Assembly (NCBI GenBank): GCA_004292795.1
Contig: RDXI01000018.1
Location: forward strand, 1 to 51,913
Origin: Bacteroidota bacterium
Lineage (GTDB): Bacteria > Bacteroidota > Bacteroidia > Cytophagales > Microscillaceae
DNA length: 51,913 nt
Direction: 5' to 3'
Positions 9,345-43,491 of the stretch are shown in pieces; position 1 is the first letter of the stretch; the number at the start of each line of letters is the position of its first letter. Under the pieces are notes generated by a model, which saw only the letters and a list, made by a program, of their open reading frames with translations, made no database searches and had not been told where the DNA came from. Position numbers and translations under genes: made by a program.

Positions 9345-9382
9345 TACCCTTACAAGGGTATTTTTATACCCTTGTAAGGGTA
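9345..9382. promoter_or_regulatory. Two adjacent perfect 16-bp palindromes (TACCCTTACAAGGGTA and TACCCTTGTAAGGGTA) spaced 22 bp apart. This is a candidate operator in a divergent intergenic region.
   Basis: Perfect dyad symmetry seen directly in the sequence. The site lies between the lipoprotein gene (minus strand) and the DJ-1 gene (plus strand). Confidence 0.45.
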
Positions 9383-10871: not shown

Positions 10872-11309
10872 ATGCAAAAACTACTTTTGTTCCTTCTGCT
10901 TGCTTGCCTCTCGCCTGCTTTGGTAGGCAAGCCACTAACCTTGCCTACAGATACTATAAACAACCATCAAATTTATTTGAATAAAAAGCCTCTTTTGTTT
11001 GCCAATGCAAACATGAAAAAAGAGGAGCTAACAATATCGTTGGCAAAGAAAAGCCTCAAAAATACGGATAAGCTTGAAGTGGTCTATGGTACTTGCACGC
11101 GAAGCTATGAAAAACATCAGCTATCTTTGAAAAACGCACAAGGTAAGACAGTTTGGAAAACTTCCACACACATACACCAAAATCCCTGTTTCCGTTTTGC
11201 TACAATCCAAAGAAAAGGAAGTGAGCTTATATTTCGGGAAAGTGTTTTTAGCCAAAATAACCCTGCGTTGAGCCTTTCTTGCCTGCGTTTTGGGGTAGGC
11301 AAGTTGTGA
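10872..11309 (+). CDS. Hypothetical small secreted protein
   Basis: Start set at the Met that precedes a hydrophobic signal-like segment (MQKLLLFLLLACLSPALVG). The upstream extension to 10803 lies inside the repeat. Confidence 0.4.
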   Translation: MQKLLLFLLLACLSPALVGKPLTLPTDTINNHQIYLNKKPLLFANANMKKEELTISLAKKSLKNTDKLEVVYGTCTRSYEKHQLSLKNAQGKTVWKTSTHIHQNPCFRFATIQRKGSELIFRESVFSQNNPALSLSCLRFGVGKL

Positions 11310-13156: not shown

Positions 13157-16064
13157 ATGCCTCTCAAGTTAGACTTCGCGGACAGGTTCGAGCAACGTCA
13201 TCATGGCACACGCGCCCAAGACATTGCTGAAATGCTCCAAACCATTGGCGTACAAAGCCTTGACGAACTGATTGAAAAGACCGTTCCTGCGTCTATTCGC
13301 CTTCCCAAACCTATCAAGGTTACAGCCCCCAAAACAGAACAAGAATTTTTGGCTGATTTCAAGAAATTGGCAGGCAAGAACCAAGTGTTCAAATCGTTTA
13401 TAGGTATGGGCTATTATGATACGCACACGCCTAACGTTATTTTGCGCAATATCCTTGAAAATCCGGGTTGGTACACCGCCTACACGCCTTACCAAGCCGA
13501 AATAGCACAAGGTCGCCTCGAAGCCCTTATCAATTTCCAAACGATGGTTATGGATTTGACAGGTATGGAAATTGCCAATGCTTCCCTGCTTGACGAAGGC
13601 ACTGCGGCGGCTGAAGCTATGACCATGCTTCACAGCTTGCGCAAAGGCACACGCAAAAGTGCAGAAACGTTTTTTGTGTCGGAACTTTGCCACCCGCAAA
13701 CCATCGATGTACTAAAAACCCGCGCTACACCGCTTGGCATCAACCTATTGATAGGCAATCACGAAACTGTCGACCTTACCTCGCCTGAAATCTACGGCTT
13801 GCTTCTGCAATATCCTGCTACCAATGGCGAAGTATTCGACTACACGAACCTTATCGCCACAGCAAAAGAACTCGGCATTTTTACCGCAGTAGCGACTGAC
13901 TTGTTGGCTCTCACTATCTTGAAAGCACCCGCTGAAATGGGCGCAGACGTGGCAGTGGGTTCTGCACAACGCTTGGGCGTGCCTATGGGCTATGGCGGAC
14001 CTCACGCGGCATTTTTTGCTACCAAAGACGAATACAAGCGACAAATTCCCGGGCGCATTATTGGGGTTTCCATAGATGCAGAAGGCAACAAAGCTTACAG
14101 GATGGCGTTGCAAACCCGCGAACAGCACATCAGACGCGAAAAAGCTACTTCGAATATCTGTACTGCCCAAGTATTGCTTTCTGTGATGGCGAGTATGTAC
14201 GGCGTATATCACGGACCTAAAGGCTTGCGTACTATTGCGGAACGTGTGTATGGCTTGACGCAACTTACCAAACAAGGGCTTGAGAAATTGGGCTTCGAAA
14301 TTGAGAACAAATATTATTTCGATACCATCACGGTTGTCTTGCCTGCTGACAAAATAGAGGCATTGCGCAAATCAGCTGAAAAAGTACAGATAAACTTCCG
14401 CTATTATGCAGAAGCAGGCAAGGTAGGAATCAGCTTTGACGAAGCCAAAACTACTGATGATGTAAACGCTATTTTCAAACTCTTCACCGCAGTAGGTAAG
14501 GAGCAAACCACGAAAGAAAAAACTGCCTTCACGACCTACACAAAAAGCCTTGCCAAAAACATCGAAATTCGCTTGCCTGATGACCTTATCCGCACAAGTG
14601 ACTACATGACGCACCCTGTTTTCAATACGCACCACACCGAACACGCGATGTTGCGCTATATGAAGCAGTTGGAAAACAAAGATTTGTCGTTGGTACATTC
14701 GATGATTGCGCTCGGTTCTTGCACGATGAAACTGAACGCAACGGCAGAAATGATACCCGTAACGTGGCGCGAATTTGGAGGCATACACCCCTTCGCTCCT
14801 CGCACACAGGCGCAAGGCTATACTGAATTGTTTACCAATTTGGAGAAATGGTTGTGCGAAATCACAGGCTTTGCGGGAACGAGCTTGCAACCCAATTCGG
14901 GAGCGCAAGGCGAATACGCGGGCTTGATGGCTATTCGTGCTTACCTACAACACAAAGGCGAGTCCGCTTATTCCTTCTTCGGCACATGGCACAAACCCTG
15001 CGAGTGCTGTCATGGCAGGTATGCAAGTAATTGTAACGAAATGTGACGAACATGGCAATATCGACTTGGCTGACCTTCGCGCCAATGCCGAAAAATACAA
15101 AGATAACCTTGCCTGCTTGATGGTTACGTATCCCTCGACTCACGGAGTTTTTGAGGAAGCTATCCAAGAAATATGCTCGATGATACACGAGTTTGGCGGA
15201 CAGGTATATATGGACGGTGCGAACATGAACGCGCAAGTGGGGCTTACCTCGCCTGCTATGATTGGCGCAGACGTTTGTCATTTGAATTTGCACAAAACAT
15301 TTTGTATTCCGCATGGAGGCGGTGGTCCTGGTATGGGTCCTATTTGCGTAGCTTCGCATCTTGTGCCTTTCCTACCTCACCACGCTGTAGTGTCTTTCTC
15401 CAATAGCAAAGAAACAGCCGTTTCTGCCGCGCCTTGGGGCAGTGCAAGCATCTTGACTATCTCGTATGCCTACATAGCCATGATGGGAGGCGAGGGCTTA
15501 ACCAACGCTACCAAAATGGCAATCCTCAATGCCAATTACATCAAAAAACGCCTCGAAGGGCATTACAACGCGCTGTATGCAGGCAAGAATGGTACTTGCG
15601 CCCACGAATTTATAGCCGATTGCCGAGATTTCAAGGCGCAAGGCGTAGAAGTGGCAGACATGGCAAAACGTTTGATGGATTACGGTTTCCACGCGCCTAC
15701 GGTTTCCTTCCCTGTGGCAGGCACACTCATGATAGAACCTACCGAGAGCGAAGACCGCGCAGAATTGGATAGATTTTGCGAGGCTTTGATTGCCATTCGT
15801 GAAGAAATACGCGAAATAGAGGCAGGCAAGGCTGAAAAAGGCAACAACGTTATCGTAAACGCGCCTCATACGGCTTTGATGGTTACCGCTTCGAATTGGG
15901 AAAAACCCTACTCACGCGAAAAGGCGGCTTATCCCCTTCCTTACCTGCGCGTAGGCAAGTATTTCCCTGCTGTTGCCAAAATAGACAACGCATACGGGGA
16001 CCGCAATCTCGTTTGTGCGTGTATTCCTGTAGAGGAGTACGCGAGTGAGGAGGCTGTGGCGTAA
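13157..16064 (+). pseudogene. gcvP: Glycine dehydrogenase (decarboxylating), the glycine cleavage system P protein. It is disrupted and split into two overlapping ORFs (13157-15046 and 14937-16064).
   Basis: Full-length colinearity with GcvP across both ORFs: GMGYYDTHTPNVILRNILENPGWYTAYTPYQ, the PLP site [18 protein letters not shown], and the C-terminal [10 protein letters not shown]. The frame changes at about 14960-14972. About nine conserved residues are missing there; E. coli has RNEGHRDIC between ES and LIPASAHG. Confidence 0.8.
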
Positions 16065-16075
16065 CGAACTTTTTT

Positions 16076-16121
16076 AGGTTGTTTGTAGTTATTGTAAAAA
16101 GGCTACAGACAACCTTTTTTA
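16076..16121 (+). terminator. Terminator downstream of gcvP
   Basis: Stem aggttgtttgtag/ctacagacaacct with one mismatch, followed by tttttt. Confidence 0.55.
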
Positions 16122-16151
16122 TCTCTTTCTAACCTAAAAACAATCAATCCT

Positions 16152-17345
16152 ATGAAAGAAACTAACCATTTATTTGAAGGCGAAGAATTTGCGCTTAATA
16201 CTCCAAAGGGGAGCAATATCATTCAAATCTCTGATGAAGATATTAATCAAAAATACAGACGAGGTGAAATACGCATTGTTACAGAACAAGCGCGTTATCC
16301 CCTTGATAGTATTGAAACTATGTTAGATACTGGTAAATACATATTAAATCCTGAATATCAACGTAGAAAACGTTGGGATAATGTGAGAAAATCTCGCTTA
16401 ATTGAGTCGTTTATTATGAATGTCCCTATTCCCCCTGTTTTTTTGTATGAGGTGGATTATTCAAAATATGAAGTAATGGATGGGCAACAACGCCTTACCA
16501 CAATTTATGATTTTTATCAAGGTAAATTTGAATTAGAAGGATTGGAACTCTGGAGCGAGCTAAATGGTAAAACTTATCAAAACCTTCCTGAACAAGTAAA
16601 AGGAGGTATAGATAGGCGTTATCTTTCTTCTATTGTGTTATTAAGAGAAACAGCCAAAAATGATATAGAAGCAGAAGAATTAAAAAAAATGGTCTTTGAA
16701 AGACTAAACAGTGGCGGGGAAAAATTAACCCCACAAGAAACAAGAAATGCTATATACAATGGGAAATTTAATCAATTGTGTTTGCGATTAGCAAAAAGTG
16801 ATGCTTTTAGAAAAATGTGGGGCTTGCCATTGGAAAGTGATAGTGAGATTAAAAAATTAAAAAGCGAACCATATAGAAAAATGGAAGATGCAGAATTAGT
16901 TTTAAGATTTTTTGCTTATCGTCATGTAAATGAATTAGTTTCTCCAATAGATAAGTTCCTTGATGCTTTTTTAGATAGAGCTAATAGCTTTTCTGATAAA
17001 CTTATGCAAGAACTTGAAGACATATTTATAAAGACTATAGATTTAATATATGCTATTTTTGGAAAAGATGCGTTTCTTTTGCCTATTAAAGTTCTAAAAT
17101 ACAAAACACCTTCAAAAACTGTATATGATCCTATGATGCAAGCATTCTCTACAAATTTACAGCATAAAGATATTTTGTTAGCTAAATGTGATGAGGTGAG
17201 GCGAAAAAGGTATGAAGACACAGATGTTCTTTTTATATCAGATAGTAAGTATTTATTTGATGGAAGGAAAAATAACAGAAATGATGTAATAGAGCGTATA
17301 GAATATTTTGATAAATTTATCAAATCATTTATCGAAACAACATGA
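16152..17345 (+). CDS. DUF262 (ParB-like nuclease/NTPase superfamily) domain protein
   Basis: PEYQRRKRW and DGQQRLTT are the signature motifs of DUF262 (PF03235). It has no DUF1524/HNH C-terminal domain. The gene is AT-rich. Confidence 0.75.
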   Translation: MKETNHLFEGEEFALNTPKGSNIIQISDEDINQKYRRGEIRIVTEQARYPLDSIETMLDTGKYILNPEYQRRKRWDNVRKSRLIESFIMNVPIPPVFLYEVDYSKYEVMDGQQRLTTIYDFYQGKFELEGLELWSELNGKTYQNLPEQVKGGIDRRYLSSIVLLRETAKNDIEAEELKKMVFERLNSGGEKLTPQETRNAIYNGKFNQLCLRLAKSDAFRKMWGLPLESDSEIKKLKSEPYRKMEDAELVLRFFAYRHVNELVSPIDKFLDAFLDRANSFSDKLMQELEDIFIKTIDLIYAIFGKDAFLLPIKVLKYKTPSKTVYDPMMQAFSTNLQHKDILLAKCDEVRRKRYEDTDVLFISDSKYLFDGRKNNRNDVIERIEYFDKFIKSFIETT

Positions 17346-18178
17346 ACCAGTTTTCCCTTGACAAATTCAAAAACGAACTTTCTCAACTGCGTGCATACCT
17401 ACAACACATTCAAAACGTGAATGAAGTGATAGGTTATGCACCTGTGGAAACAGATAGCGAAGTTATAACTATGCTGATAGAAAAGTTAAGAAAACAAGAG
17501 TTTGATAGTAATTTTAGAATAAATAGAAAAACTTTTGAGTACAAAGCAGTTATTATATCGCTGTATGGTACTCTCGAAAGAACTATAGAAAATTGGGTAA
17601 AGGAATATCTTGATGCTTTGTCGGGTATTGTTACAGATTATGCTAAACTTCCTGATAAAATAAAAGATAACCACTTTAAAAATTCTCTTGAATTGATTAC
17701 CGATAAATTAAGCAAAAAAGACATAGCTCCAAAATACCAACATTTGAGAAAAGAGGAGGTTTTGAAAATACTGAATCAATGTGTAGAACAAGGGACAGAG
17801 TATAAATTTAATGCAGATGCTTTTTTATTATCTTCTGGGAATTTAAAACATGATAAAATAGCACCAATATTAGCAAATTTGGATATAGATTTGAAACAAA
17901 CTACTTTTCTAAAAGATAAATCTGAAAATGAAAAAAAAGCTATCTATGCTCTCATAGATGAACTTGTAGAAAGGCGTAATGAAGTAGCACATGGTTCTGA
18001 TAGTGTTATTGACAACTTATTAGAAGTATCTTTAATTGAAGAACATATCATCAACTTAGAGATTTATGTCAGTGCTATATTTGACATTCTCAATCAAAGG
18101 CTTATCCGTTTTGAAGCTGAGGAGTCAGGGGCTTTTTTTTTTAGTAAACATAGCGAAGGATACGGTTTGGCAACATAA
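17342..18178 (+). CDS. HEPN-domain protein (predicted RNase)
   Basis: Its start overlaps the DUF262 stop by 4 bp (ATGA). An Rx4H motif (ERRNEVAHG) lies near the C-terminus within an all-alpha context. A T10 run at 18133-18142 joins this frame to the downstream ORF 18066-18422. Confidence 0.55.
   Translation: MNQFSLDKFKNELSQLRAYLQHIQNVNEVIGYAPVETDSEVITMLIEKLRKQEFDSNFRINRKTFEYKAVIISLYGTLERTIENWVKEYLDALSGIVTDYAKLPDKIKDNHFKNSLELITDKLSKKDIAPKYQHLRKEEVLKILNQCVEQGTEYKFNADAFLLSSGNLKHDKIAPILANLDIDLKQTTFLKDKSENEKKAIYALIDELVERRNEVAHGSDSVIDNLLEVSLIEEHIINLEIYVSAIFDILNQRLIRFEAEESGAFFFSKHSEGYGLAT
18133..18142 (+). repeat. T10 homopolymer at the junction of the HEPN ORF and an out-of-frame downstream ORF
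   Basis: gggg-ctttttttttt-agt. A one-nucleotide slip would fuse the HEPN protein to about 95 extra residues (LVNIAKDTVWQHK...KNNQK). The downstream ORF has no start codon of its own. Confidence 0.7.
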
Positions 18179-18431
18179 AATTGTAGGCATTTTTTTAGAG
18201 GATTATACAGTCAAAATAGATGATTTCGTACTTATTGAAACACCTGATAAAGAATTTTTAAAAGAAAGGATAGTAGGAATAGGAACGGGGAGCGGTAAGG
18301 ATTTAAAGAAACATACAAATCTTTCTGTTATAGATAAAACAGAAGTAGCTATTATCGTCAATGCTCATCTAAGTAACAATGCAAAGTCCCATAAATTCTA
18401 TTTGAAAAACAATCAAAAATAGAATAAAACT

Positions 18432-18818
18432 ATGCTATATTTTCAAAAATACTCCACCCAATTTTGCCAAACCTTCAGTCATTTGCAGGCAAAAAATCTG
18501 CATTTACAAGCGAGTTACGCGCTTGATACGGAATGGTTTGCTATGCAATTTCGCTTCGTAGAACAACCCACTTCAGGCGAGTTCGAAGCTATCGAGATAA
18601 ACTTTGAGGCGATGTTGGCAGAAGAAAATACTACAAAAGAGGCGTTTTTGCAAGAAATACAGTACAATAAAAAAATAATATTCTACGATATTGAAACCTT
18701 GTATATTTTTAACTCGCCTACTTTGGAGCGTTGGATACCCGAACACGCTATGCAAGATGCAAGAGATGTTTTAGGCATTATGTTTAATTCTTTAACCAAT
18801 TATCCACAAACTATATGA
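18432..18818 (+). CDS. Hypothetical protein (128 aa), the third gene of the DUF262-HEPN cassette
   Basis: ORF directly downstream on the same strand. No motifs recognised. Confidence 0.4.
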   Translation: MLYFQKYSTQFCQTFSHLQAKNLHLQASYALDTEWFAMQFRFVEQPTSGEFEAIEINFEAMLAEENTTKEAFLQEIQYNKKIIFYDIETLYIFNSPTLERWIPEHAMQDARDVLGIMFNSLTNYPQTI

Positions 18819-18862
18819 ACAATGCCACTACATCAAATCTTTTTATCCAAAAAATAAAAAAT

Positions 18863-19053
18863 CTTTTCGCCTTTTCTAGTGTTAGAAAAATGAATGACAA
18901 ATTTTAGTTTTTGATAACCTTATCAATCATTCATTTTTCGACACCTGAAAAGAATAATCTTAGATTTGCTTTTCAGGTGTCGAAACGCTGAATAAAAAAA
19001 GTATGTTTATATCCACATTTGATAGCGTTTCTAACACCTGAAAAGGCGAAAAG
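18863..19053. repeat. 191-bp nested-palindrome element, MITE-like or an sRNA/regulatory structure. It holds four alternating copies of ACACCTGAAAAG.
   Basis: Outer inverted repeats lie at 18863-18888 and 19028-19053 (24/26 match). The inner hairpin at 18936-18985 has a perfect 17-bp stem. The intergenic region is 440 bp long. Confidence 0.7.
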
Positions 19054-19223
19054 CCTCTGCCTCTGCGCCCAATAGTTCTACAATCTTTTGATAAGACATG
19101 ACAGATATAAGGGTTTTGATGTTGTAAGAATTTGCAAAGTTACAGCTTAGAAACATGGCACACAACCTCTGTGCTTTCCTGCTTGTTTTGGGCTTGCTAT
19201 ATACAACATGATAGGATATTTTG

Positions 19224-19231
19224 TAACTTTG
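19224..19231 (+). promoter_or_regulatory. Candidate Bacteroidetes -7 promoter element (TAACTTTG, fitting TAnnTTTG) for miaB
   Basis: Matches TAnnTTTG about 27 bp upstream of the ATG at 19258. Confidence 0.3.
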
Positions 19232-19257
19232 CACCCTAAAAAATTGTTGTTTTTACT

Positions 19258-20745
19258 ATGGAAAATCTTATCCAAGACATTGATATACTCACGCCAGAGG
19301 CGCAAGAAGGGTGCGAAACGGTGAAAGTATCTGTAGAAACCTCTACAGGCAAGGCGCGAAAATTATATATTGAAAGCTATGGTTGTCAAATGAACTTCTC
19401 AGATAGCGAAATCGTAGCGTCCATTATGCACGAAGGAGGCTTCGACACGACCTCAAGCGAAGAAAATGCCGACCTTATTTTCCTCAATACTTGTGCTATC
19501 CGCGACAATGCCGAACAGAAAATTCGCCACCGCCTCCAACACCTAAACGGGCTGAAAAAACGCAAGCCAAGCCTGATGATTGGCGTGTTGGGCTGTATGG
19601 CTGAACGCTTGAAAATCAAACTTATAGAGGAGGAAAAAGTGGTCGACCTCGTGGCAGGACCCGATGCCTACCGCGACTTGCCTAACCTCGTGAGCGAAGT
19701 AGATGGCGGACAAAAAGCTATGAACGTATTTTTGTCAAGAGATGAAACCTACGCAGACATCGCGCCTGTGCGCCTCAATTCCAATGGCGTAAGTGCTTTT
19801 GTGTCTATTATGCGTGGTTGTGATAATATGTGTTCGTTCTGTGTTGTGCCTTTCACACGCGGAAGGGAGCGCAGTCGAAACCCTCATTCTATAGTAGCCG
19901 AAGTACAAGATTTGTTCGACAAAGGCTACCGCGAAGTTACACTTTTGGGGCAAAATGTGGACTCGTATCTTTGGAGTTCGAACCCTGATGTTATTTCTAT
20001 CTTAGGTGAGAAAAAAGCTGTAAAACAAGGCGCAGACCTGACAGGCGTAGAAATCGTGAACTTTGCGAACTTGCTCGAAATGGTGGCGCAGGTAAGCCCG
20101 CTTGTGCGAGTGCGCTACTCGACCTCGCACCCCAAAGACATGACAGATGATGTTCTGCACATCATGGCGAAGTACGAAAACATCTGCAAGTACATTCACT
20201 TGCCTGCCCAAAGTGGCAACTCTCGTGTCTTGGAATTGATGAACAGAGGCTACACAAGGGAAGTATATTTGGACAGAATCCGCGCCATTCGTGCCATTTT
20301 AGGCGATGATTGCGGAATTTCTATGGACTTGATAGCGGGCTTTTGCACCGAAACAGACGAAGAACACCAAGACACGCTTTCGCTCATGCAAGAAGTGAAA
20401 TACGATTTTGGCTATATGTTCTACTATTCAGAACGCCCCAATACACCCGCCGAAAAACGCTTGAAAGACGACATTTCCCTCGAAGTAAAGAAAAAACGTT
20501 TGGCGGAAATAATCAATCTCCAAATGGAACACTCGCTTGAGCGCAATCGCCTTGACGTAGGCAAGACTTTCAAAGTGTTGATAGAAGGCACTTCGAAACG
20601 CTCTGAAGACCAACACATGGGACGCAACACTGCCAACAAAGTAGTCATTTTCCCCCGAAGCGATAAATACCAAAAGGGCGACTATGTAACAGTGAAAATA
20701 CACGACTGCTCTGCCGCGACTTTGTTTGGTGAGATAGTAGCATAA
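19258..20745 (+). CDS. miaB: tRNA-2-methylthio-N6-dimethylallyladenosine synthase (radical SAM methylthiotransferase)
   Basis: N-terminal MTTase domain ([10 protein letters not shown]). Radical SAM motif [12 protein letters not shown]-terminal TRAM domain. Length 495 aa. Confidence 0.9.
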
Positions 20746-20751
20746 ATTTGT

Positions 20752-20848
20752 AGGGGCAACCCTTGTGGTTGCCCTTTGTGTAAATACGCATTTTTATTTT
20801 AAACACGATTTGTGTCCGAAAAAGGGCAACCACAAGGGTTGCCCCTAC
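20752..20848. repeat. Pair of inverted REP-like hairpins (GGGGCAACCCTTGTGGTTGCCC and GGGCAACCACAAGGGTTGCCCC) separated by 40 bp
   Basis: Hairpins at 20755-20775 and 20825-20845 are reverse complements of each other. A third copy forms the terminator at 1946-1976. Confidence 0.75.
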
Positions 20849-35354: not shown

Positions 35355-38057
35355 ATGGCTACTTATTATCAAAACTCGCCTAAAGAACTTTTGCAAAGCC
35401 TCGCCTCCCATGCCGAAAAGGGCATCACACAACAAGAGGCAGGCAAGCGTTTACAAGAAAATGGACACAATCGCATCAAAACAACCAACAAACGAAGCGC
35501 GTTCAGTATGTTTTTGGAGCAATTCAAAAATATGTTGGTCTTGCTTTTGATGGGCGCGGCGGGCTTGGCTGTCGTGTTAGGTTCGTATCAAGATGCCGTT
35601 ATCTTGATGTTGGTCGTGTTGTTCAATGCCACTGTAGGCTTTTATCAAGATTGGAAAAGCGAAAATATTTTAGCTTCTTTGAAGGATTTGATAATCCAAA
35701 ATTGCCTCGTCATACGCGAAGGCGAGCGCAGAGAAGTCCCATCTGATGAGTTGGTAGTGGGCGATATCGTGTATCTGAACGAAGGTGATGGCGTGCCTGC
35801 CGACATTCGCCTGCTTGCCTCCACTGCCTTCCAAACCAATGATTTTATCCTCACAGGCGAGTCGCAACCTGCCGAAAAAAGCCATACGGACATAGTAGGC
35901 AAGGAAACCGCGCCCCTAAGCGACCAAACAAATTGCGCCTTCATGGGTACAAGCGTTGCCAAAGGCGAGGCGGTGGGCGTGGTATTCGCTACAGGTATGC
36001 AAACACAAATAGGCAAGATTGCGCAAAGTTCTGACGAAATAGATGCTTCGAAAACACCGCTACAGCGTGAGATTGACAAAGTAGCCGAGAAAATCACATA
36101 CGTCACGATTGTATTGGCTCTTTTGCTCTTCGCGGGGCGTTGGATAAGTGGCGAGTCCTTGCGTGGGGCGTTGTTGTTTGCTATTGGTGTCGCGGCGGCT
36201 ATGGTGCCAGAAGGCTTGCCTGCCCAAATTTCGGTTTCGCTTGCGTTGGGTGTAGGGCGGTTGGCTCGCAAAAAAGCTGTAGTTAAAAAAATGTCTGCCG
36301 TAGAAGCTCTTGGCTCGGCTACCGTCATAGCTTCCGATAAAACAGGCACGCTTACCAAAAACGAAATGAGCATCATTCACACACATTTCAACGGAAAAGA
36401 TTTTACCATCACAGGCACAGGCTACGAACCCAAAGGCGAAATATTAAACATTGATGGCGAAAGAGTAACAAAAGATAACTTAGACCACGAAAAAGTATTT
36501 TTTCTGGCAGGTTTCCTCGCCTCCACAGGCAAGGTCAATGCTCCTGACCAATATCACCCGCATTGGTACGCAGTGGGCGACCCGACAGAGTGCGCCTTTG
36601 GCACACTTGCGTTGAAAGCAGGCTATGACTTACAAGAAACCGAACTTGCCTACCCGCGCCTACAGTTATTCCCGTTTGACTCCTTCCGAAAGCGTGTTAC
36701 CATTATCCGCGAACACAAGGGCAAAACGATTGCCTTTATAAAAGGCTCTATAGAATCTTTGTTAGAAATCTCGAACAAGGTTATCGCACATGGGCAGGCA
36801 AGGGACTTTTACCCCGAAGAAAAAGAGCAATTATTGAACGAAGCAAAAGCATTTGCCTCGCAAGCCAAACGCATTATTGCCATTGGCTACAAGGATTTGG
36901 CAAAAGAGGACGCAGTAGGCAAGCAAGAAGACGTAGAGCAAAACATTACTTTTGCAGGCTTTGCCACGATGATAGACCCGCCCCACGAAGAAGTGCATGA
37001 GGCTATTCAATCGGCTTACAAGGCAGGGCTGAAAGTGATTATGATAACAGGCGACAACGAAATCACAGCACGCGCAGTAGGCGAGTTGGTGGGTATGCAG
37101 GTAGGCGAGGTTATCAACGAAACAAAGCTCAAGGCTATGACTGATGCCGAACTGAAAACGCATTTCAATCAAGCCTCTGTTATCTTTTCCCGCGTTTCAC
37201 CTACTGAAAAACTAAGGATAGTATCACTTTTGAAAGAAACAGGTGAGATAGTAGCCGTAACGGGTGATGGCGTAAATGATGTATTGAGTTTGAAAAAGGC
37301 AGATATAGGCGTGTCGATGGGGCGTGTAGGGAGCAAGGTGGCGCAAGAAGCCTCTAATATGGTCTTACTGAACGATAATTTTGCCGTAATCGTGGAGGCT
37401 ATCCGCGAAGGGCGCACCATTTACAACAACTTGAAAAAAATGGTATTGGCAAACTTATCAGGCAATTTAGCGGAATTGTTGTGTGTGTTGATAGGCTTTT
37501 TCGGAGCATTTTATGGCTATCCATTGGTTATCATTCCCATTCACATTTTATTGATTGACTTGATAGCCAATATGTTACCGCTTTTGATGCTTTCTTTTGA
37601 TAAACCTGAAAACAACATCATGCAACAACCGCCCCGCAAACAAGGCGAAATGCTTGATGCGCAAAGTTTGTCTTATGTGCTGTATTCGGGCTTTTTTCGT
37701 GGGGCAATGGCATTTTTGGCGTGCTATCTTGCCTACCATGCGCACACAGGCGAGGCGCGACAAGGCGCAATCTCGGCTACTGCTACAATGGCTTCTATAG
37801 TCATTTGTCAATTTGTGGGCATACTTTCCAGCAGAACCACGCGAAGCATTTTTACGGCTTATTTCTTCAGCAATACCAATTTGTTCATAGGTTTTGGGTT
37901 GTCGTTGGCGTTTTTGTTGTTCATTATTTACTTGCCTGCTATGAATGGCTACCTGACCACAAGCCCGCTCAATGCGCAAGATTGGGGTTTTGTGTTGGGT
38001 GGGGCGGTGTTGTATTTGGTATTTTTGGAAGTAATGAAAAAGGTAACACGCAAGTAG
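35355..38057 (+). CDS. P-type ATPase, cation-transporting (P2-type, Ca2+/Mg2+-like)
   Basis: Phosphorylation site DKTGTLT. Hinge TGDGVNDVLSLKKADIGVSMG. Ten predicted transmembrane segments. Length 900 aa. Confidence 0.9.
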   Translation: MATYYQNSPKELLQSLASHAEKGITQQEAGKRLQENGHNRIKTTNKRSAFSMFLEQFKNMLVLLLMGAAGLAVVLGSYQDAVILMLVVLFNATVGFYQDWKSENILASLKDLIIQNCLVIREGERREVPSDELVVGDIVYLNEGDGVPADIRLLASTAFQTNDFILTGESQPAEKSHTDIVGKETAPLSDQTNCAFMGTSVAKGEAVGVVFATGMQTQIGKIAQSSDEIDASKTPLQREIDKVAEKITYVTIVLALLLFAGRWISGESLRGALLFAIGVAAAMVPEGLPAQISVSLALGVGRLARKKAVVKKMSAVEALGSATVIASDKTGTLTKNEMSIIHTHFNGKDFTITGTGYEPKGEILNIDGERVTKDNLDHEKVFFLAGFLASTGKVNAPDQYHPHWYAVGDPTECAFGTLALKAGYDLQETELAYPRLQLFPFDSFRKRVTIIREHKGKTIAFIKGSIESLLEISNKVIAHGQARDFYPEEKEQLLNEAKAFASQAKRIIAIGYKDLAKEDAVGKQEDVEQNITFAGFATMIDPPHEEVHEAIQSAYKAGLKVIMITGDNEITARAVGELVGMQVGEVINETKLKAMTDAELKTHFNQASVIFSRVSPTEKLRIVSLLKETGEIVAVTGDGVNDVLSLKKADIGVSMGRVGSKVAQEASNMVLLNDNFAVIVEAIREGRTIYNNLKKMVLANLSGNLAELLCVLIGFFGAFYGYPLVIIPIHILLIDLIANMLPLLMLSFDKPENNIMQQPPRKQGEMLDAQSLSYVLYSGFFRGAMAFLACYLAYHAHTGEARQGAISATATMASIVICQFVGILSSRTTRSIFTAYFFSNTNLFIGFGLSLAFLLFIIYLPAMNGYLTTSPLNAQDWGFVLGGAVLYLVFLEVMKKVTRK

Positions 38058-38071
38058 TTATCGAACATAAA

Positions 38072-38107
38072 AGCAGGCAAGATGCGAGTCTTGCCTGCTT
38101 TGTTTTT
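38072..38107 (+). terminator. Terminator of the GCAGGCAAGA...TCTTGCCTGC stem family
   Basis: agcaggcaaga-tgcgag-tcttgcctgct followed by ttgttttt. Confidence 0.7.
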
Positions 38108-38144: not shown

Positions 38145-38699
38145 TTACTTTATGTGAGCAAAATGTTCTCTTGCGTACACAAACCGTTTATCTGGTGGAA
38201 ATAATGAAGTTTCCACAACAGGTCCCGTAACGTGATTGCATACCAACCTTGCATCTGCAGGTTGGGCTTCCCAACACAATGGATTAACATTTTCTCCGAA
38301 AACTGTACGCAATACCTCCAATGTGTAATCATATAGAGTAGCCATAATCCTTACATCTTCAGGTTTGTCATGATCTAATGGTTCATGGTGCATATAATAG
38401 CCCATGACCTCAGAACAAAATTTCTTATAACGTGGTGTATCGAGAATGTGAGCGTGCCAATAAGGATCAACAACATCTGATATTGCATGCATATTTGCAG
38501 AATTTATAGCACCTATAGCATAATACTGTTTCAAAGCGTAAACAGCATCTTCAGCAGGTATAGGTATTAGTCCTTTAGACCTCAGTTCTTTTTCTGCAAA
38601 TTTTACCACAAATGAATAATCTTCTGCATCTATCCCTTTAAGTATAGCCCATTGTTTGTCGCTCAAATCAACTTCTACGGTGTTTGATACCTTCTTCAT
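38145..38699 (-). CDS. Hypothetical protein (184 aa), AT-rich
   Basis: ORF with compositional shift. No motifs recognised. Confidence 0.4.
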   Translation of the reverse strand: MKKVSNTVEVDLSDKQWAILKGIDAEDYSFVVKFAEKELRSKGLIPIPAEDAVYALKQYYAIGAINSANMHAISDVVDPYWHAHILDTPRYKKFCSEVMGYYMHHEPLDHDKPEDVRIMATLYDYTLEVLRTVFGENVNPLCWEAQPADARLVCNHVTGPVVETSLFPPDKRFVYAREHFAHIK

Positions 38700-38875
38700 T
38701 GCATAATTGAAATGTGAATTTTACCTACTCTCTTGCACGCTTTTCGGTTTCCGCGTTCATTTGATACAAAAATATAAGGCTTTTTTGATAAAAACAAAAA
38801 ATAATACATAAAATATTTGTGTTTTATAACACAATTTCAATACATTTGCATCTTAAAACAATACATTTTACTCTT

Positions 38876-39271
38876 ATGAATGAGAAAACATTACAGGTAG
38901 GTGCTAAAATCAAAAAAATGCGTGATTTGCGCGGTCTTACCCAAACAGAAATGGCTGAAAAGTTAAACCTATCTCTCAATGCTTATGGCAAGGTTGAACG
39001 CGAAGAAACGGAACTTTCGCTAAGTCGGTTGCAAGAAATTGCTAATATATTGCAAATCACTATGCATGACTTGTTGGATTTTGATGACAAAAAGCTAAAT
39101 TTTACTCAAAACCACAATTACCATGACACCTCAAGTTCTACAAATATCGCCTATCAAGAAACAAAAAGCGATTTTGAAAACGAGCGCAAGCAATATGAAG
39201 CCCGCATTACAGACCTCAAACAAGAAAATGAACGCCTACACGCGCTCCTCGAAAAAAGCCTAACTAAATAA
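38876..39271 (+). CDS. XRE-family helix-turn-helix transcriptional regulator with a coiled-coil C-terminus
   Basis: HTH_3-like LRGLTQTEMAEKLNLSLNAYGKVEREE. Start set at MNEKT. Confidence 0.7.
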   Translation: MNEKTLQVGAKIKKMRDLRGLTQTEMAEKLNLSLNAYGKVEREETELSLSRLQEIANILQITMHDLLDFDDKKLNFTQNHNYHDTSSSTNIAYQETKSDFENERKQYEARITDLKQENERLHALLEKSLTK

Positions 39272-39284
39272 ACCTCTAAAAACT

Positions 39285-40304
39285 ATGCTACTTGACCAAG
39301 ACTATTTCGCCTTTTTAGGAGAAGTAAAGGATTTGATACGCAAAGCGCAAATACGCGCAAGCCGCGTGGTAAATAAAGAAATGATAACGCTTTATTGGGA
39401 TATTGGGCGTGTGATAGTGGAAAAACAAGAACTGTTGGGCTATGGTAAGTCTGTAGTGGAGCAACTTTCCAAAGATTTACGCGATGAGTTTCCAAATGTA
39501 GATGGCTTTTCTGCTCGCAATATGTGGGATATGCGTCACTTGTACCTTGCCTACAAAGACGAGCCAATTCTGCGACAGCTTGTCGCAGAAGTTCCTTGGA
39601 AACATAATACCATGATAATGAGTCTAAAAGACAAAGAGGCGCAAGCATTTTACCTGCTGAAAGTGAAAGAATTGCATTGGTCGCGTGAGGTGCTAACCTT
39701 TCAAATCAAAAACAAGGCTTACCAAAACTTACTTACCCAATCTAAAACACATAATTTTGGAAATACCCTGCCCGAAGCCCAAGCAGAGGAAGCTAACAGC
39801 ATTTTGAAAAGTGAATATACGTTTGATTTTTTGGGCTTACAGGAAACAGTTTTAGAAAAGGTTTTGGAAAATAGGCTCATGGAGCATTTGAAACAGTTTT
39901 TGCTTGAATTGGGCTATGGCTTTACGTTTGTGGGGCAACAATACAGAATCGTTTTGGGGCAGAAAGATTATTTTATCGATTTATTGTTTTTCCATAGAAA
40001 ACTCAAATGTTTGGTAGCCATTGATTTAAAAATTGGCGAATTTGAACCCGAATATGCAGGCAAGATGAATTTTTACTTGGAAGTGCTTGATGATACGGTA
40101 CGTATGCCTGACGAAAACCCCTCAATAGGCATTATTCTATGCACCAAAAAAGACGACTTAGAAGTTGAATATTCTTTGAGAAGCCAAAATAAACCTATAG
40201 GCGTAGCAGAATACAAACTATACGAACAACTGCCCGAAGAACTAAGCAAACAACTTCCCTCTGCTAAAGACATCAAAAAATACCTAAACTCCAAAAAGAA
40301 ATAA
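39285..40304 (+). CDS. YhcG/DUF1016-family PD-(D/E)xK nuclease-like protein, paralog 1
   Basis: Typical DUF1016 N-terminus (DYFAFLGEVKDLIRKAQIRASRVVNKEMITLYWDIGR). C-terminal PD-(D/E)xK core YFIDLLFF...LVAIDLKIGEF. Confidence 0.7.
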   Translation: MLLDQDYFAFLGEVKDLIRKAQIRASRVVNKEMITLYWDIGRVIVEKQELLGYGKSVVEQLSKDLRDEFPNVDGFSARNMWDMRHLYLAYKDEPILRQLVAEVPWKHNTMIMSLKDKEAQAFYLLKVKELHWSREVLTFQIKNKAYQNLLTQSKTHNFGNTLPEAQAEEANSILKSEYTFDFLGLQETVLEKVLENRLMEHLKQFLLELGYGFTFVGQQYRIVLGQKDYFIDLLFFHRKLKCLVAIDLKIGEFEPEYAGKMNFYLEVLDDTVRMPDENPSIGIILCTKKDDLEVEYSLRSQNKPIGVAEYKLYEQLPEELSKQLPSAKDIKKYLNSKKK

Positions 40305-40306
40305 AA

Positions 40307-40330
40307 CAGGCAAGACTCGCGTCTTGCCTG
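40307..40330 (+). terminator. Perfect palindrome CAGGCAAGAC-TCGC-GTCTTGCCTG directly after the YhcG-1 stop. No T-tract on the plus strand.
   Basis: 10-bp perfect stem. It is the same stem family as 38072 and 41448. Confidence 0.45.
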
Positions 40331-40433
40331 CTTGGTATGCTCAAAAAAAAATTTTTATTTTTGTTTAATTGAGTATTTGTTATGTATATTTGCATACTTT
40401 ACTTCTTTAAAAATCTCTAACCAAGTAAAAACT

Positions 40434-41447
40434 ATGCGCTCTGAAGATACCCTCTACCAAAATGTTCGCGAAATCATCTTGAACGCGAAGGCAAAAATCA
40501 ACCACACTGTCAATTTTACAGTGGTCGAAACCTATTGGCTTATAGGCAAGTACATCATCGAAGAAGAACAGCAAGGCAAACACCGCGCTGAGTATGGAAA
40601 ACAACAGATGAAACTTTTGGCTGAAAAGCTAACAGATGAGTTTGGTAAAAATTATGATAGAAGCAATCTTTTGCGCATGAAGAATTTTTACCTGCTTTTC
40701 CCAATTCGTGACGCACTGCGTCACGAATTGAGTTGGTCGCATTATCGCTCTCTTTTGCGCGTGGAAAGTGAGCAGGCAAGGCATTTTTATATCGCGGAGG
40801 CTATCTCGAATAATTGGGGAACGCGGGCTTTGGATAGACAAATCAATACGTTGTATTATGAACGCTTGCTTGCCTCCCAAGACAAAACACCCGTGAAACA
40901 AGAGATGTACGACAAAACAAAGGATTTAGCACCCGAAGACATCTTGAAAGACCCCTATATTTTGGATTTTCTGCAAATAGAAACACGCAAAACTTACCTC
41001 GAATCCGAACTCGAACAGGCTTTGATGGACAAGCTAAACGATTTTTTGTTGGAGTTAGGCAAGGGCTTTGCTTTTGTGGGAAGGCAAAAAAGAATAAGCA
41101 CCGAAACGAAAGATTTTTATATTGATTTGGTGTTTTACAACTATATTTTGAAATGCTTTGTGTTGATTGATTTGAAAATTGATGAACTTACACATCAAGA
41201 TATTGGGCAAATGGATATGTATGTGCGGCTTTTTGAGGATAAATACAAAGGTTCAGACGACAATCCGACTATTGGCTTGATACTCTGCACGCACAAAGAC
41301 CAAACTATAGTAAAATATTCAGTTTTGCATGAAAGTAAACAACTTTTTGCCTCCAAATATATGCTTTACTTGCCTACCGAAGAAGAACTAAGAAAGGAAA
41401 TAGAGCGCGAAAAGTATTTGATAGAACGCGAAAGGGCAGATAAATAA
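40434..41447 (+). CDS. YhcG/DUF1016-family PD-(D/E)xK nuclease-like protein, paralog 2
   Basis: Co-linear with paralog 1 (ETYWLIGKYI..., FYIDLVFYNYILKCFVLIDLKIDEL). Start set at MRSED. Confidence 0.7.
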   Translation: MRSEDTLYQNVREIILNAKAKINHTVNFTVVETYWLIGKYIIEEEQQGKHRAEYGKQQMKLLAEKLTDEFGKNYDRSNLLRMKNFYLLFPIRDALRHELSWSHYRSLLRVESEQARHFYIAEAISNNWGTRALDRQINTLYYERLLASQDKTPVKQEMYDKTKDLAPEDILKDPYILDFLQIETRKTYLESELEQALMDKLNDFLLELGKGFAFVGRQKRISTETKDFYIDLVFYNYILKCFVLIDLKIDELTHQDIGQMDMYVRLFEDKYKGSDDNPTIGLILCTHKDQTIVKYSVLHESKQLFASKYMLYLPTEEELRKEIEREKYLIERERADK

Positions 41448-41482
41448 CAGGCAAGACTCGCGCCTTGCCTGCTGTTTTTATT
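41448..41482. terminator. Bidirectional terminator (CAGGCAAGACTCGCGCCTTGCCTG plus T-run) shared by YhcG-2 and the convergent lysS
   Basis: Hairpin followed by ctgtttttatt on the plus strand. lysS stops at 41478. Confidence 0.65.
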
Positions 41483-43202
41483 GCAACCACGCCTCAATTT
41501 CTTCTTTCGTAGCGGGTTTCACACTGTCAAGTTTCATTTTTTTGCGCATACCGCCTATATCGTTTAGGAGCTTGCCTGCGCTTGCCTGCTTCAAGGCTTC
41601 TATAGTCAGGAAGCCCATTTTTTGTAGGATAGGCACAAGCTCTTCGCGCACACCGATAGCAACATAATCAGCAGTTTCTGCCATTTCTGTACGCTTTTCG
41701 GGGCGCATTTGAGGGAAGAAAAGCACATCTTGAATAGATGCTTCGTTGGTCATCAACATCGTAAGCCTGTCCATGCCTATGCCCATGCCTGAAGTGGGAG
41801 GCATACCATACTCAAGGGCGCGAATAAAATCAAGGTCTATGAACATAGCTTCGTCATCACCTTTTGCCGAGAGTTTGAGCTGTTCTTGAAAACGCTCATA
41901 TTGGTCTATCGGGTCGTTCAATTCCGAATACGCATTGCACAATTCCTTGCCATTCACGATAAGCTCGAAGCGTTCTGTGAGTTCAGGATTTTCGCGGTGG
42001 CGTTTGCACAAAGGCGACATTTCAATAGGATAATCCGTGATAAAAGTAGGCTGAATGAGGTTTGCTTCGCAGAGTTCGCCAAAAAGTTCATCAATCAACT
42101 TGCCTTTGCCCATCGAGGGCGCAGTTTCAATGCCTTTTTGTTGGCAGAAGGCGCGGAGTTCGTTTTCAGTCTTGCCTGCTATGTCTATCTCGTTGTTCGA
42201 ATACTTCAAAATGGCATCTCGCATACTTAGGCGAGCAAAAGGGCGTTGAAAATTGATTTCGTTCTTGCCTACCGTTACAGTCGTTTTGCCATGCAACGCA
42301 AGGGCTACCTTTTCAATCATTTCTTCGGTGAAATCCATCATCCAAAGATAATCCTTGTAGGCAACATAAATCTCCATAATCGTAAATTCGGGATTATGGG
42401 TTCTGTCCATACCTTCATTACGAAAATCTTTTGCAAATTCATACACGCCCTCGAAACCACCCACAATGAGGCGTTTCAAGTACAATTCATTCGCAATACG
42501 CAAATACAAAGGCATATCCAGCGCGTTGTGATGCGTGATGAAAGGTCTTGCACTCGCTCCACCAGGAATAGATTGCAAGATAGGCGTTTCTACTTCGAGG
42601 TAGCCTTTGCTATTGAAAAAGTCGCGGAGCGTGCTATAGATTTTAGTACGTTTCACAAACGTTTCGCGTACTTGTGGGTTTACCACAAGGTCAGCATAGC
42701 GTTGGCGATAGCGAAATTCGGCATCAGTAACGGCATCATGCACATTGCCCTCGCTATCTGTTTTCACGATAGGCAAGGGGCGCAAGGCTTTCGCCAAGAT
42801 AACCAAACGCTCTACGTGAATGCTAATCTCGCCTACTTGTGTACGAAAAACATAGCCTTCTACGCCTATGAAGTCGCCTAAATCGAGTAGTTTTTTGAAA
42901 ACTGTATTATAGAGTGTCTTGTCTTCGTCTGGGCAAATATCATCACGGCGAACATAAATTTGTATTCTGCCTGTAGTATCTTGGATTTCAGCAAAGGAAG
43001 CACTGCCTTGCACGCGCATACTCATAAGCCTGCCCGCAAGACGCACCTGTTTATAATTATCGGGTTGTTTATCAAAGTTTTCGAGAATATCCGTAGCGTA
43101 ATGCGTAAGGTGATATTGCGCGGCGGGGTATGGCTCTATGCCTATAGAGCGCATTTGTTGCAACTTGTCGCGCCTTAGTTGCTCTTGTTCGCTGAGAATC
43201 AT
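41478..43202 (-). CDS. lysS: Lysine--tRNA ligase (class II) with a C-terminal extension
   Basis: OB-fold anticodon-binding N-terminus. Class II motifs (FRNEG..., GMGIGMDRLTML). Length 574 aa. Confidence 0.9.
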   Translation of the reverse strand: MILSEQEQLRRDKLQQMRSIGIEPYPAAQYHLTHYATDILENFDKQPDNYKQVRLAGRLMSMRVQGSASFAEIQDTTGRIQIYVRRDDICPDEDKTLYNTVFKKLLDLGDFIGVEGYVFRTQVGEISIHVERLVILAKALRPLPIVKTDSEGNVHDAVTDAEFRYRQRYADLVVNPQVRETFVKRTKIYSTLRDFFNSKGYLEVETPILQSIPGGASARPFITHHNALDMPLYLRIANELYLKRLIVGGFEGVYEFAKDFRNEGMDRTHNPEFTIMEIYVAYKDYLWMMDFTEEMIEKVALALHGKTTVTVGKNEINFQRPFARLSMRDAILKYSNNEIDIAGKTENELRAFCQQKGIETAPSMGKGKLIDELFGELCEANLIQPTFITDYPIEMSPLCKRHRENPELTERFELIVNGKELCNAYSELNDPIDQYERFQEQLKLSAKGDDEAMFIDLDFIRALEYGMPPTSGMGIGMDRLTMLMTNEASIQDVLFFPQMRPEKRTEMAETADYVAIGVREELVPILQKMGFLTIEALKQASAGKLLNDIGGMRKKMKLDSVKPATKEEIEAWLQ

Positions 43203-43226: not shown

Positions 43227-43491
43227 ATAGCTTTTTCTTGTGAAAAAGCTATAGCAATTTGATGAACTATAGCTTTTTCTCGTGAAAAAAGCTATAGCAA
43301 TTTGATGAACTATAGCTTTTTCTTGTGAAAAAGCTATAGCAATTTGATGAACTATAGCTTTTTCTTGTGAAAAAGCTATAGCATCTTGTGAAAAAGCTAT
43401 AGCAATTTGATGAACTATAGCTTTTTCTTGTGAAAAAGCTATAGCAATTTGATGAACTATAGCTTTTTTTCTGAAAAACGCAAAAAGCTAT
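43227..43491. repeat. Tandem array of six or seven 42-bp units. Each unit is a 26-bp palindrome (ATAGCTTTTTCTTGTGAAAAAGCTAT) plus a constant 16-bp linker (AGCAATTTGATGAACT). It lies in the lysS upstream region.
   Basis: Direct reading. Units start at 43227, 43269, 43312, 43354 and 43417. A degenerate unit starts at 43459, and a partial internal duplication lies at 43380-43400. Confidence 0.85.

Follow-up and report, generated by a model that had tools for sequence, protein, structure and literature searches.

This report concerns a block of four genes in a 51,913-nucleotide (nt) stretch of DNA, contig RDXI01000018.1 from the metagenome-assembled genome of an uncultured Bacteroidota bacterium. 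We call this whole stretch the window, and coordinates are window positions. The block lies between a P-type ATPase gene and lysS and contains two nuclease genes of the YhcG/DUF1016 family. We put at roughly 60% the probability that it is a strain-variable accessory insertion, made of two YhcG modules bounded by copies of a terminator and belonging to a mobile cassette family with a cis-acting hairpin. The locus singled out in an original prediction, made from the sequence alone, holds ordinary representatives of a known but uncharacterised family and lies in an accessory hot spot, and the evolutionary reading given to it there, a tandem duplication of one gene with its terminator, is wrong. 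Two family-wide features, a hairpin inside the coding sequence and direct repeats flanking the gene, were not found described in the literature.

Block layout and strain variation

Between the stop codons of the ATPase gene (35355–38057, plus strand) and the convergent lysS (41478–43202, minus strand), the list of open reading frames (ORFs) and Pfam place, in this order, the ORF hyp184 (38145–38699, minus strand; 184 amino acids, aa), the HTH_3 regulator gene XRE1 (38876–39271, plus strand), and the genes YhcG1 (39285–40304, plus strand; 339 aa) and YhcG2 (40434–41447, plus strand; 337 aa), both with DUF1016_N and YhcG_C nuclease domains. These are the genes and flanks that the original prediction had named, and ORFs and Pfam confirm them. 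YhcG2 starts at the ATG at 40434, which gives the 337 aa that match its homologues, and not at the TTG at 40332 proposed by the ORF lister.

The content of the block differs between close strains. In a sister strain (L081; 96.2% identity over 2933 nt), the order is a terminal hairpin, a 27-nt flank as found after the first such hairpin of the window (H1), 11 nt, the last 105 nt of an XRE-like gene, YhcG2, a hairpin and lysS; hyp184, XRE1, YhcG1 and the second hairpin (H2) are absent. That a strain at 96% nucleotide identity lacks these elements bears out the proposal of an accessory insertion. A third strain (L160) has the two-copy arrangement, and YhcG2 is present in all three strains seen. 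The comparison of copy numbers suggested for this site thus returned one copy and two copies, and no zero-copy site was found. When lysS was scanned in species-representative genomes, relatives reached at most 69% identity over the full gene, and none had an ATPase or YhcG gene adjoining lysS.

The claim that the block is compositionally distinct stands only in part. Its GC content (0.377) is mildly low relative to the window (0.417) and the flanking genes (0.46 and 0.45), but the distinctness is weak, with 6% of same-size stretches of the window having a GC content as low. The lowest-GC stretch of the window (15600–19500, 0.33) falls below the block and may be another accessory segment.

Two nucleases of different sub-families

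Profile searches uphold the assignment of both proteins to the YhcG/DUF1016 family of PD-(D/E)xK nucleases. DUF1016_N (PF17761) matched YhcG1 with 147.6 bits and YhcG2 with 140.8 bits (gathering threshold 32.8; E 3e-43 and 4e-41), and the PD-(D/E)xK domain YhcG_C (PF06250) did so with 214.4 and 197.1 bits (gathering threshold 32.5; E 1e-63 and 2e-58). The catalytic residues E207, D231, D246, L247 and K248 (YhcG2 numbering) are invariant in an alignment of 66 sequences, and the motif FYIDL...IDLKI is present in both proteins. PDC-S02, which PADLOC lists as a candidate phage-defence family, is the top match of both, through PDLC04795 for YhcG1 (E 1.3e-136) and PDLC04807 for YhcG2 (E 2e-142). An exact look-up of YhcG1 matched no record, and no solved structures were found by sequence search. 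A structure search with an AlphaFold2 (AF2) model (pLDDT 71.8) gave weak matches to PD-(D/E)xK proteins (Cas4, RecE and cap-snatching endonucleases; E ≥ 2e-3) and none for the N-domain. YhcG would be expected to act as a Mg-dependent PD-(D/E)xK endonuclease on foreign or structured DNA.

YhcG1 and YhcG2 share 35% identity (114/322), whereas the closest foreign relative of YhcG1 is 75% identical to it and YhcG2 has relatives at 80% identity in other organisms. Judged by their sequences, the two nucleases belong to different sub-families.

Terminal hairpins at the block

A 24-nt palindrome with a perfect 10-bp stem (CAGGCAAGACTCGCGTCTTGCCTG) occurs three times in the 52-kb window, all three copies lying within 3.4 kb and at the block, as compared with 0 such matches in 100 shuffles. 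H1 (38070–38101, core 38074–38097, CAGGCAAGATGCGAGTCTTGCCTG) follows the ATPase gene and forms the left boundary of the first of the two modules. Its loop has the opposite orientation to those of H2 and H3, and when read on the minus strand it is identical to the other copies at 23 of 24 positions. H2 (40307–40330) lies 2 nt past the YhcG1 stop codon, at the boundary between the modules, and is also found in L160. H3 (41448–41471) abuts the YhcG2 stop codon and lies 6 nt from that of lysS. None of the three is assigned to a strand, and about 36–40 nt can be aligned around each. The statement that the same hairpin follows each paralog was correct for both genes, but it overlooked the third copy after the ATPase gene. 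A G+C-rich stem followed by a T-tract, as in terminators, is found for H1 on the plus strand (predicted fold −23 kcal/mol, z −7.2) and for H3 on both strands, facing YhcG2 and lysS. As H2 has a T-tract on the minus strand only and none on the plus strand, it is not a canonical terminator for YhcG1, and the label of terminator given to these hairpins fits H3 but not H2.

Outside the window, all hairpin copies in L081, L160 and L174, a contig from another metagenome, touch YhcG genes, and the 11-kb L160 has the hairpin only at such genes. There was none in 87 other (unrelated or more distant) Bacteroidota loci, exact-pattern scans of the Joint Genome Institute (JGI) metagenomes and IMG/VR gave 0 matches, and no Rfam family covers H1–H3. 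As the hairpin is present in the JGI contig L174, which was reached another way, the JGI collection is incomplete for an exact-pattern scan. A strong hairpin past the YhcG stop codon was seen in only 3 of 68 loci, which makes H2 and H3 a feature of the window's lineage. Elsewhere in the window, a hairpin (GGGCAACCcttgtGGTTGCCC) recurs 70 nt away as its exact reverse complement (20754–20774 and 20824–20844), in the same flipped-loop relation as H1 to H2 and H3. Three further hairpins inside long ORFs (7022–7045, 9008–9026 and 10923–10948) have the stem core AGGCAAG/CTTGCCT of H1–H3 with different loops and flanks.

L174 and L175 also reveal how the parts of such loci combine. They contain a 67%-identical YhcG1-type gene with the same hairpin 2 nt past its stop codon, and upstream of this gene a decayed hairpin and a leader that is 78% identical to the YhcG2 leader of the window. 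As a YhcG2-type leader precedes a YhcG1-type gene in L174, the same frame holds different nuclease types. Downstream of the hairpin (L174 6029–6100) lies a short YhcG2-like relic that begins at the internal palindrome of the gene described below (gtgcgacactgtcgcac caattgagttgg).

Module design and the XRE regulator

XRE1 (HTH_3, E 1.6e-13) has a coiled-coil-like C-terminal tail ending in ...ERLHALLEKSLTK before its stop codon. It is separated by 13 nt from YhcG1 in the same orientation, and the XRE–YhcG1 pair recurs in L176 with the same XRE tail; the original view of the XRE as a linked regulator agrees with both. Upstream of XRE1 we read from the sequence a candidate XRE operator, the 7-bp inverted repeat TTGTGTT-tTAT-AACACAA (38817–38834, plus strand), followed by a Bacteroidota-type −7 box, TAcaTTTG (38841–38848, plus strand). 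The second module starts with a leader (40331–40408, plus strand) made up of a flank (TTGGTAnGCnCAA) that resembles the one behind H1 and of a promoter-like stretch, in which the −7 box reads TATATTTG (40385–40392, plus strand). The promoter-like stretches before XRE1 and before YhcG2 are homologous, with the −7 box TAnnTTTG in both. Between leader and YhcG2 lie the last 25 nt of a second XRE gene (40409–40433, plus strand, ending in KSLTK and a stop codon), identical to the end of the XRE remnant in L081. The 3' end of XRE1 and the second XRE remnant share 81% nucleotide identity, and tblastn detects XRE residues 104–131 in L081 at 86% aa identity.

As the leaders are homologous and an XRE remnant is present, the unit is flank, promoter, XRE, YhcG and hairpin. 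The second module once had its own XRE, since deleted to different extents in different strains, to 105 nt in L081 and to 25 nt in the window; this former gene had been overlooked in the original prediction. On this sequence comparison, the block is best described as a strain-variable stack of two XRE+YhcG modules with non-orthologous nucleases, in which the XRE would repress its own module.

Adjacent, co-oriented genes are also what a type II toxin-antitoxin or abortive-infection pair would present, with the nuclease as toxin and the XRE as antitoxin and repressor. XRE1 and YhcG1 are arranged in this way and probably co-transcribed (the gap of 13 nt is 3 nt in L176), and the XRE has weak matches to antitoxin-type helix-turn-helix (HTH) families and to restriction-modification (R-M) control proteins (in PADLOC, 'Control_protein' and capH-like, E 1e-9 to 1e-10). 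In such a system the pairing should also be conserved across the family and the toxin should not be kept without its antitoxin, and neither was found. YhcG2 is intact in three strains despite an XRE gene cut to 25 or 105 nt, and YhcG is mostly solitary within other operons. No HTH occurred among the 25 commonest (of 44) Pfam families in 48 upstream neighbours of YhcG homologues, and phmmer with XRE1 on the neighbours of 48–56 YhcG homologues revealed no adjacent XRE. These two negative searches rule out the XRE as a general partner of YhcG; the pairing is lineage-specific. The intact YhcG2 genes without XRE weaken the toxin-antitoxin reading, and with it the toxin-like role that had been suggested, to the point where we regard it as distinctly unlikely.

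A hairpin inside the YhcG coding sequence

A scan for perfect hairpins located palindromes of different sequence at the homologous codon of both nuclease genes. That of YhcG1 (TTCTGCGACAgctTGTCGCAGAA, 39568–39590, plus strand) has a 10-bp perfect stem (−17 kcal/mol, z −4.2) centred on the first base of the Leu99 codon and is identical in its 63–75% homologues; that of YhcG2 (CAATTCGTGACGCactGCGTCACGAATTG, 40702–40730, plus strand) has a 13-bp perfect stem (−20.6 kcal/mol, z −5.95). Among metagenomic homologues, nearly every gene has a perfect stem of 7–15 bp with a 3-nt loop, centred on the first base of a conserved Leu/Val codon, and predicted RNA stabilities range from −17 to −25 kcal/mol (z −4 to −7). 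The yhcG gene of E. coli K-12 has a 15-bp stem at gene nt 378–410 (L159, NC_000913.3, 6205–6237), and the hairpin is also found in plasmid copies of YhcG from Pseudomonas, Rhodococcus, Leptolyngbya, Legionella and Phocaeicola. Rfam 15 has no family for it, and no description was found in the full-text literature searched.

The comparison of hairpins was anchored on the protein alignment and not on structure. Over 13 pair positions, 79% of pairs were Watson-Crick as compared with 16–36% at shifted centres. In an alignment of 65 sequences, 86.3% of cells were paired, as against 57.4% in shuffles (reached in 0 of 500) and 28–39% when the centre was slid; the covariation score was 0.657 as against 0.173, with double-sided changes at all 13 pairs. 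Synonymous-codon shuffles gave a mean maximum stem of 3.1 compared with 8.4 observed, and 31 of 56 genes exceeded all 200 of their shuffles. Where an amino acid was conserved, codon identity was retained in 79.8% of cases within the hairpin as against 37.8% beyond it. The residues encoded by the hairpin, which the AF2 model places in a loop joining two helices, change radically and in a coupled manner (IRD..RHE, IRG..RPE, ILD..RRE, NLD..RLN). Base pairing is therefore kept by compensatory change beyond the constraint on the protein. Most likely the hairpin would serve as a cis-acting mRNA element, for example in autoregulation or as a processing target, although it could instead act as a DNA hairpin or cruciform site.

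Covariation of this kind could also be mimicked by template-switch repair, if the palindrome were a functionless, self-perpetuating quasi-palindrome in a mutation-tolerant loop. Pairing that is almost purely Watson-Crick, the many perfect stems of 13–15 bp, the radical variation of the encoded loop residues and the lack of a clear G·U excess in our grouping of mismatches into events all fit this explanation. It does not account for a hairpin that keeps its codon position in four or more phyla, even between proteins only about 30% identical, nor for the exact 29-nt sequence being unchanged between genes of 60–80% identity, or for the difference in codon retention. Moreover, as long perfect palindromes are normally unstable in bacteria, their persistence implies selection. 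We therefore consider a functionless palindrome unlikely.

We also asked of truncated and frameshifted YhcG copies where they break. Their breaks cluster near residues 65–75, a gapped region about 20 codons upstream, which excludes the palindrome as the breakpoint; only the L174 relic starts there. Some longer homologues (L105, L156, L111, L116 and L103) contain more than one palindromic unit of the form I-x-x-x-L/V-x-x-E, two or three in all and in frame; those beyond the canonical unit lie upstream of it, in N-terminal extensions or insertions.

Direct repeats flanking YhcG genes

The arrangement of H1, H2 and H3 prompted a comparison of the flanks of homologues, in which the 600 nt upstream of each YhcG homologue were compared with the 600 nt downstream. 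Significant direct repeats of 28–224 nt and 77–96% identity flank YhcG in 15 of 56 loci, compared with none of 74 controls (0/41 lysS loci and 0/33 shifted 1-kb blocks of the same contigs). The repeats consist of local target DNA and differ between loci. In about half of the cases the downstream copy begins at most 30 nt from the YhcG stop codon, as do H2 and H3. Examples are L102 (658–857 and 1942–2141) and L124 (213–430 and 1819–2042), and further repeat-flanked loci are L113, L127, L140, L112/L117, L114, L107, L130, L146–148 and L176. In L102, YhcG lies in the 5' end of queG and a 200-nt duplication restores queG. In L107, a duplicate of the beginning of the downstream gene (VKMSS...) opens the YhcG ORF, and a duplicate of the final part of the upstream gene (...GEDVL and stop codon) closes it. 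The YhcG of L112/L117, placed between an rmlA-like and an rmlC-like gene, is joined to the initial codons of the rmlC-like one. Such precise placement at the junctions of operon genes, with both neighbours kept whole, is frequent and suggests that YhcG may move as a small cassette. As the repeat signature recurs across the family, the three terminator copies in the window are most simply read as junction duplications. The literature searched made no mention of flanking target repeats of YhcG genes.

No gene for an integrase of the IntI type or another recombinase was found by Pfam among the ORFs of the block and its flanks, or in the 10 kb beyond lysS as judged from Pfam matches in the syntenic L160. 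On the P. aeruginosa plasmid pZYPA187 (L166, 1248–3508), a site-specific integrase gene overlaps the YhcG start by 4 nt, the only integrase–YhcG pair seen.

Origin of the block

In the explanation that we favour, the insertion site was probably a single bidirectional terminator shared by the ATPase gene and lysS, which converge on it. What inserted there would be two separate modules with a common layout (promoter, XRE and YhcG nuclease) and an unrelated GRDP-like gene, hyp184, and H1–H3, each with about 10–25 nt of flank, would be copies of the original terminator that now form the junction or target duplications bounding the modules. The XRE of the second module has been deleted down to its last 25 nt, and in the window's lineage the nuclease may be kept low by the XRE repressor.

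The original prediction was that one YhcG gene plus its terminator was duplicated in tandem and diverged, which in-place divergence the co-linear genes, the repeated hairpin and the homology between the left parts of both modules would fit. It is contradicted by proteins that are 35% identical next to hairpins that agree at 23 of 24 positions. Each nuclease has foreign relatives at 75–80% identity and a different best sub-family model, a third hairpin follows the ATPase gene, the sister strain has YhcG2 alone, and the same hairpin stands behind the 67%-identical YhcG1-type gene elsewhere. We give this explanation almost no weight. A duplication of the whole module in tandem, in which one nuclease was afterwards swapped for another YhcG allele by homologous recombination across the XRE 3' end on one side and the hairpin on the other, is a stronger contender, though still less probable than separate insertions. 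It would explain the identity of the XRE 3' ends (81% in nucleotides, 86% in amino acids), the homologous promoters and flanks, and the YhcG2-type leader before the YhcG1-type gene of L174. It requires two steps, however, does not by itself explain the direct repeats around YhcG in unrelated operons, and leaves hyp184 in module 1 only. If, on the other hand, the palindrome were a lineage-specific repeated terminator similar to repetitive extragenic palindromes (REPs), its position at three gene ends would be due to chance and would say nothing on how the genes arrived. H1 and H3 do resemble functional intrinsic terminators, L174, another contig, has the hairpin next to different neighbours, and other hairpins of the window share the AGGCAAG/CTTGCCT core. 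Against this, three copies are confined to 3.4 kb of 52 kb, the copies in the 11 kb of L160 and every other copy outside the window touch YhcG genes, none was found in the 87 other Bacteroidota loci or the collection scans, and H2 has no T-tract in the sense orientation. A chance distribution of this sort thus seems quite improbable.

Several observations weigh against two separate insertions of mobile modules with a cis-acting hairpin. As the left parts of the modules (flank, promoter and XRE 3' end) are mutually homologous, an old module duplication with nuclease replacement fits them as well as two insertions do. No empty site with the ATPase gene, the hairpin and lysS was found, relatives at 86–91% lysS identity having other lysS neighbours, and the block revealed neither a recombinase nor a transposase. 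Flanking repeats are lacking at about 70% of YhcG loci. The terminal palindrome could be commoner elsewhere in the genome, as its counts cover the 52-kb window, L081, L160 and L174. Rickettsia, Wolbachia phage WO and some other members of the family have no intragenic hairpin, and the G·T and A·C mismatches of this hairpin, 24:8 when counted by cells, are about equal when grouped by us into apparently independent events. A role in defence is likewise questioned by the only such test found, in which one PDC-S02 gene, challenged in E. coli B with T4, T5 and T7, was not among the four protective candidates (bioRxiv 10.1101/2024.09.26.614923).

A further-reaching possibility, which we put forward tentatively as rather less probable than not, is that YhcG/DUF1016 genes are mobile elements of a single gene each, autonomous or semi-autonomous. 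The nuclease would promote its own insertion at operon junctions and terminators with target duplications of 28–224 nt, and the hairpin would be the cis site of insertion or of nuclease self-control. If this is true, they would constitute a previously unrecognised class of selfish or defence cassette that is present even in E. coli K-12.

Family context and defence

For the family context, 70 metagenomic homologues were examined. hsdM was found upstream in 5 of 48 loci and hsdS downstream in 6 of 48, and elsewhere YhcG is part of type III CRISPR-Cas operons (L089/L090, L161) or of polysaccharide operons, or separates gyrB from gyrA. In L161 (5467–6474), a YhcG that is 80% identical to YhcG2 is located inside a type III (Cmr/Csm) CRISPR-Cas operon, and in L089/L090, L133 and L153 YhcG lies between RAMP and Card1 genes or between gyrB and gyrA. 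YhcG homologues occurred in 519 plasmid records but in only 14 phage records among 50,697, and the only viral relative in IMG/VR was 1 locus.

The family is uncharacterised and associated with mobile genetic elements (PMC1189080, PMC4316617, PMC9881135). Its members have been found in type I R-M loci, on plasmids and on integrative and conjugative elements (PMC9881135, PMC4316617), and are 17-fold enriched beside phase-variable defence and R-M genes (PMC9881135). The closest fold relatives of the nuclease are Holliday-junction resolvases (PMC1189080). Together with the PDC-S02 matches, the type I R-M and type III CRISPR neighbours of homologues sustain the defence-type association of the original prediction. 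In the window itself, an ORF about 9 kb from the block (50166–51803, minus strand) is a type IIG R-M enzyme by synteny with an L160 gene (Pfam Eco57I and M_Eco57I_C), and would be a second defence-type gene near the block.

YhcG/DUF1016 is one of the commonest uncharacterised nuclease families, and this locus shows its gene acting as an exchangeable cassette between close strains. The covarying hairpin and the target duplications offer two starting points for direct tests in E. coli K-12, and either could explain how a lone nuclease gene is tolerated and has spread into R-M, CRISPR-Cas and housekeeping operons. The hairpin also calls for caution in annotation, as a strongly selected nucleic-acid element that is absent from Rfam can hide in an ordinary ORF.

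hyp184 and other features of the window

hyp184 has no direct Pfam match and is remotely related to GRDP-like/DUF1399 proteins (2130 relatives at E ≤ 1e-3), its larger relatives matching PF07173. A full-length DUF805b RNA motif (Rfam RF02914; 38722–38757, minus strand; 44.8 bits, gathering threshold 35.6; E 1e-9) is located 22 nt upstream of this gene, which encodes a GRDP-like and not a DUF805 protein. As no homologue was found near other YhcG genes, hyp184 was rejected as a part of the YhcG system: it is a GRDP-like gene with a DUF805b leader, unrelated to the YhcG modules.

Two further palindromic features lie outside the block. Between the lysS start and an FGE-sulfatase-like gene (43227–43478), about five palindromic units (CTATAGCTTTTTCttgtGAAAAAGCTATAG) are arranged in tandem with a period of 42 nt and 96% matches; L081 aligns to this array at several offsets, and its copy number may vary between strains. 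An intergenic perfect palindrome with a 17-bp stem (TACCCTTACAAGGGTAtttttaTACCCTTGTAAGGGTA) is found at 9345–9382.

Comparison with known systems

The nucleases of the window have the full two-domain architecture, the E...D...DxK core and the top PDC-S02 matches of the YhcG/DUF1016 family (COG4804). Unlike the family in general, the window stacks two sub-families, each with an XRE regulator, a pairing that is not general. A small HTH_3 protein upstream of a nuclease, probably in one operon, is shared with R-M systems regulated by C proteins and with XRE repressors of defence genes. The window locus, however, is without the methyltransferase partner of C-protein systems, and its putative operator is read from an inverted repeat.

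For the intragenic hairpin, the closest parallels are repC of pT181, in which the origin hairpin lies inside the rep coding sequence, and the Rickettsia palindromic elements (RPEs), which are found inside ORFs. In each comparison a hairpin-forming sequence is conserved inside a gene, in our case one for a DNA-cleaving enzyme. In contrast to repC, any action of YhcG on its own hairpin would be hypothetical, and unlike RPEs the YhcG palindrome is not dispersed, being family-specific and fixed at one codon.

As to mobility, the block resembles integron cassettes with attC sites in its single genes, each followed by an imperfectly conserved palindrome, and in its constant frame with variable gene content. 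It differs from them in that its 24-nt hairpin has no GTTRRRY core, its modules bring a promoter and regulator of their own, no integrase was seen, and the repeats at other YhcG loci are local target DNA instead of a cassette-borne site. The free-standing homing endonucleases of T-even phages are likewise lone nuclease genes between conserved operon genes, with a patchy distribution among close relatives. Homing leaves no target duplication, however, whereas YhcG is flanked by repeats of 28–224 nt and is rare in phages. Integrative elements of the att (Campbell) type differ from YhcG inserts, which are about 1–1.5 kb long, usually comprise YhcG alone and had an adjacent integrase in one case. 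They do share the imperfect target repeats (77–96%) that flank the insert and restore the ends of the interrupted genes.

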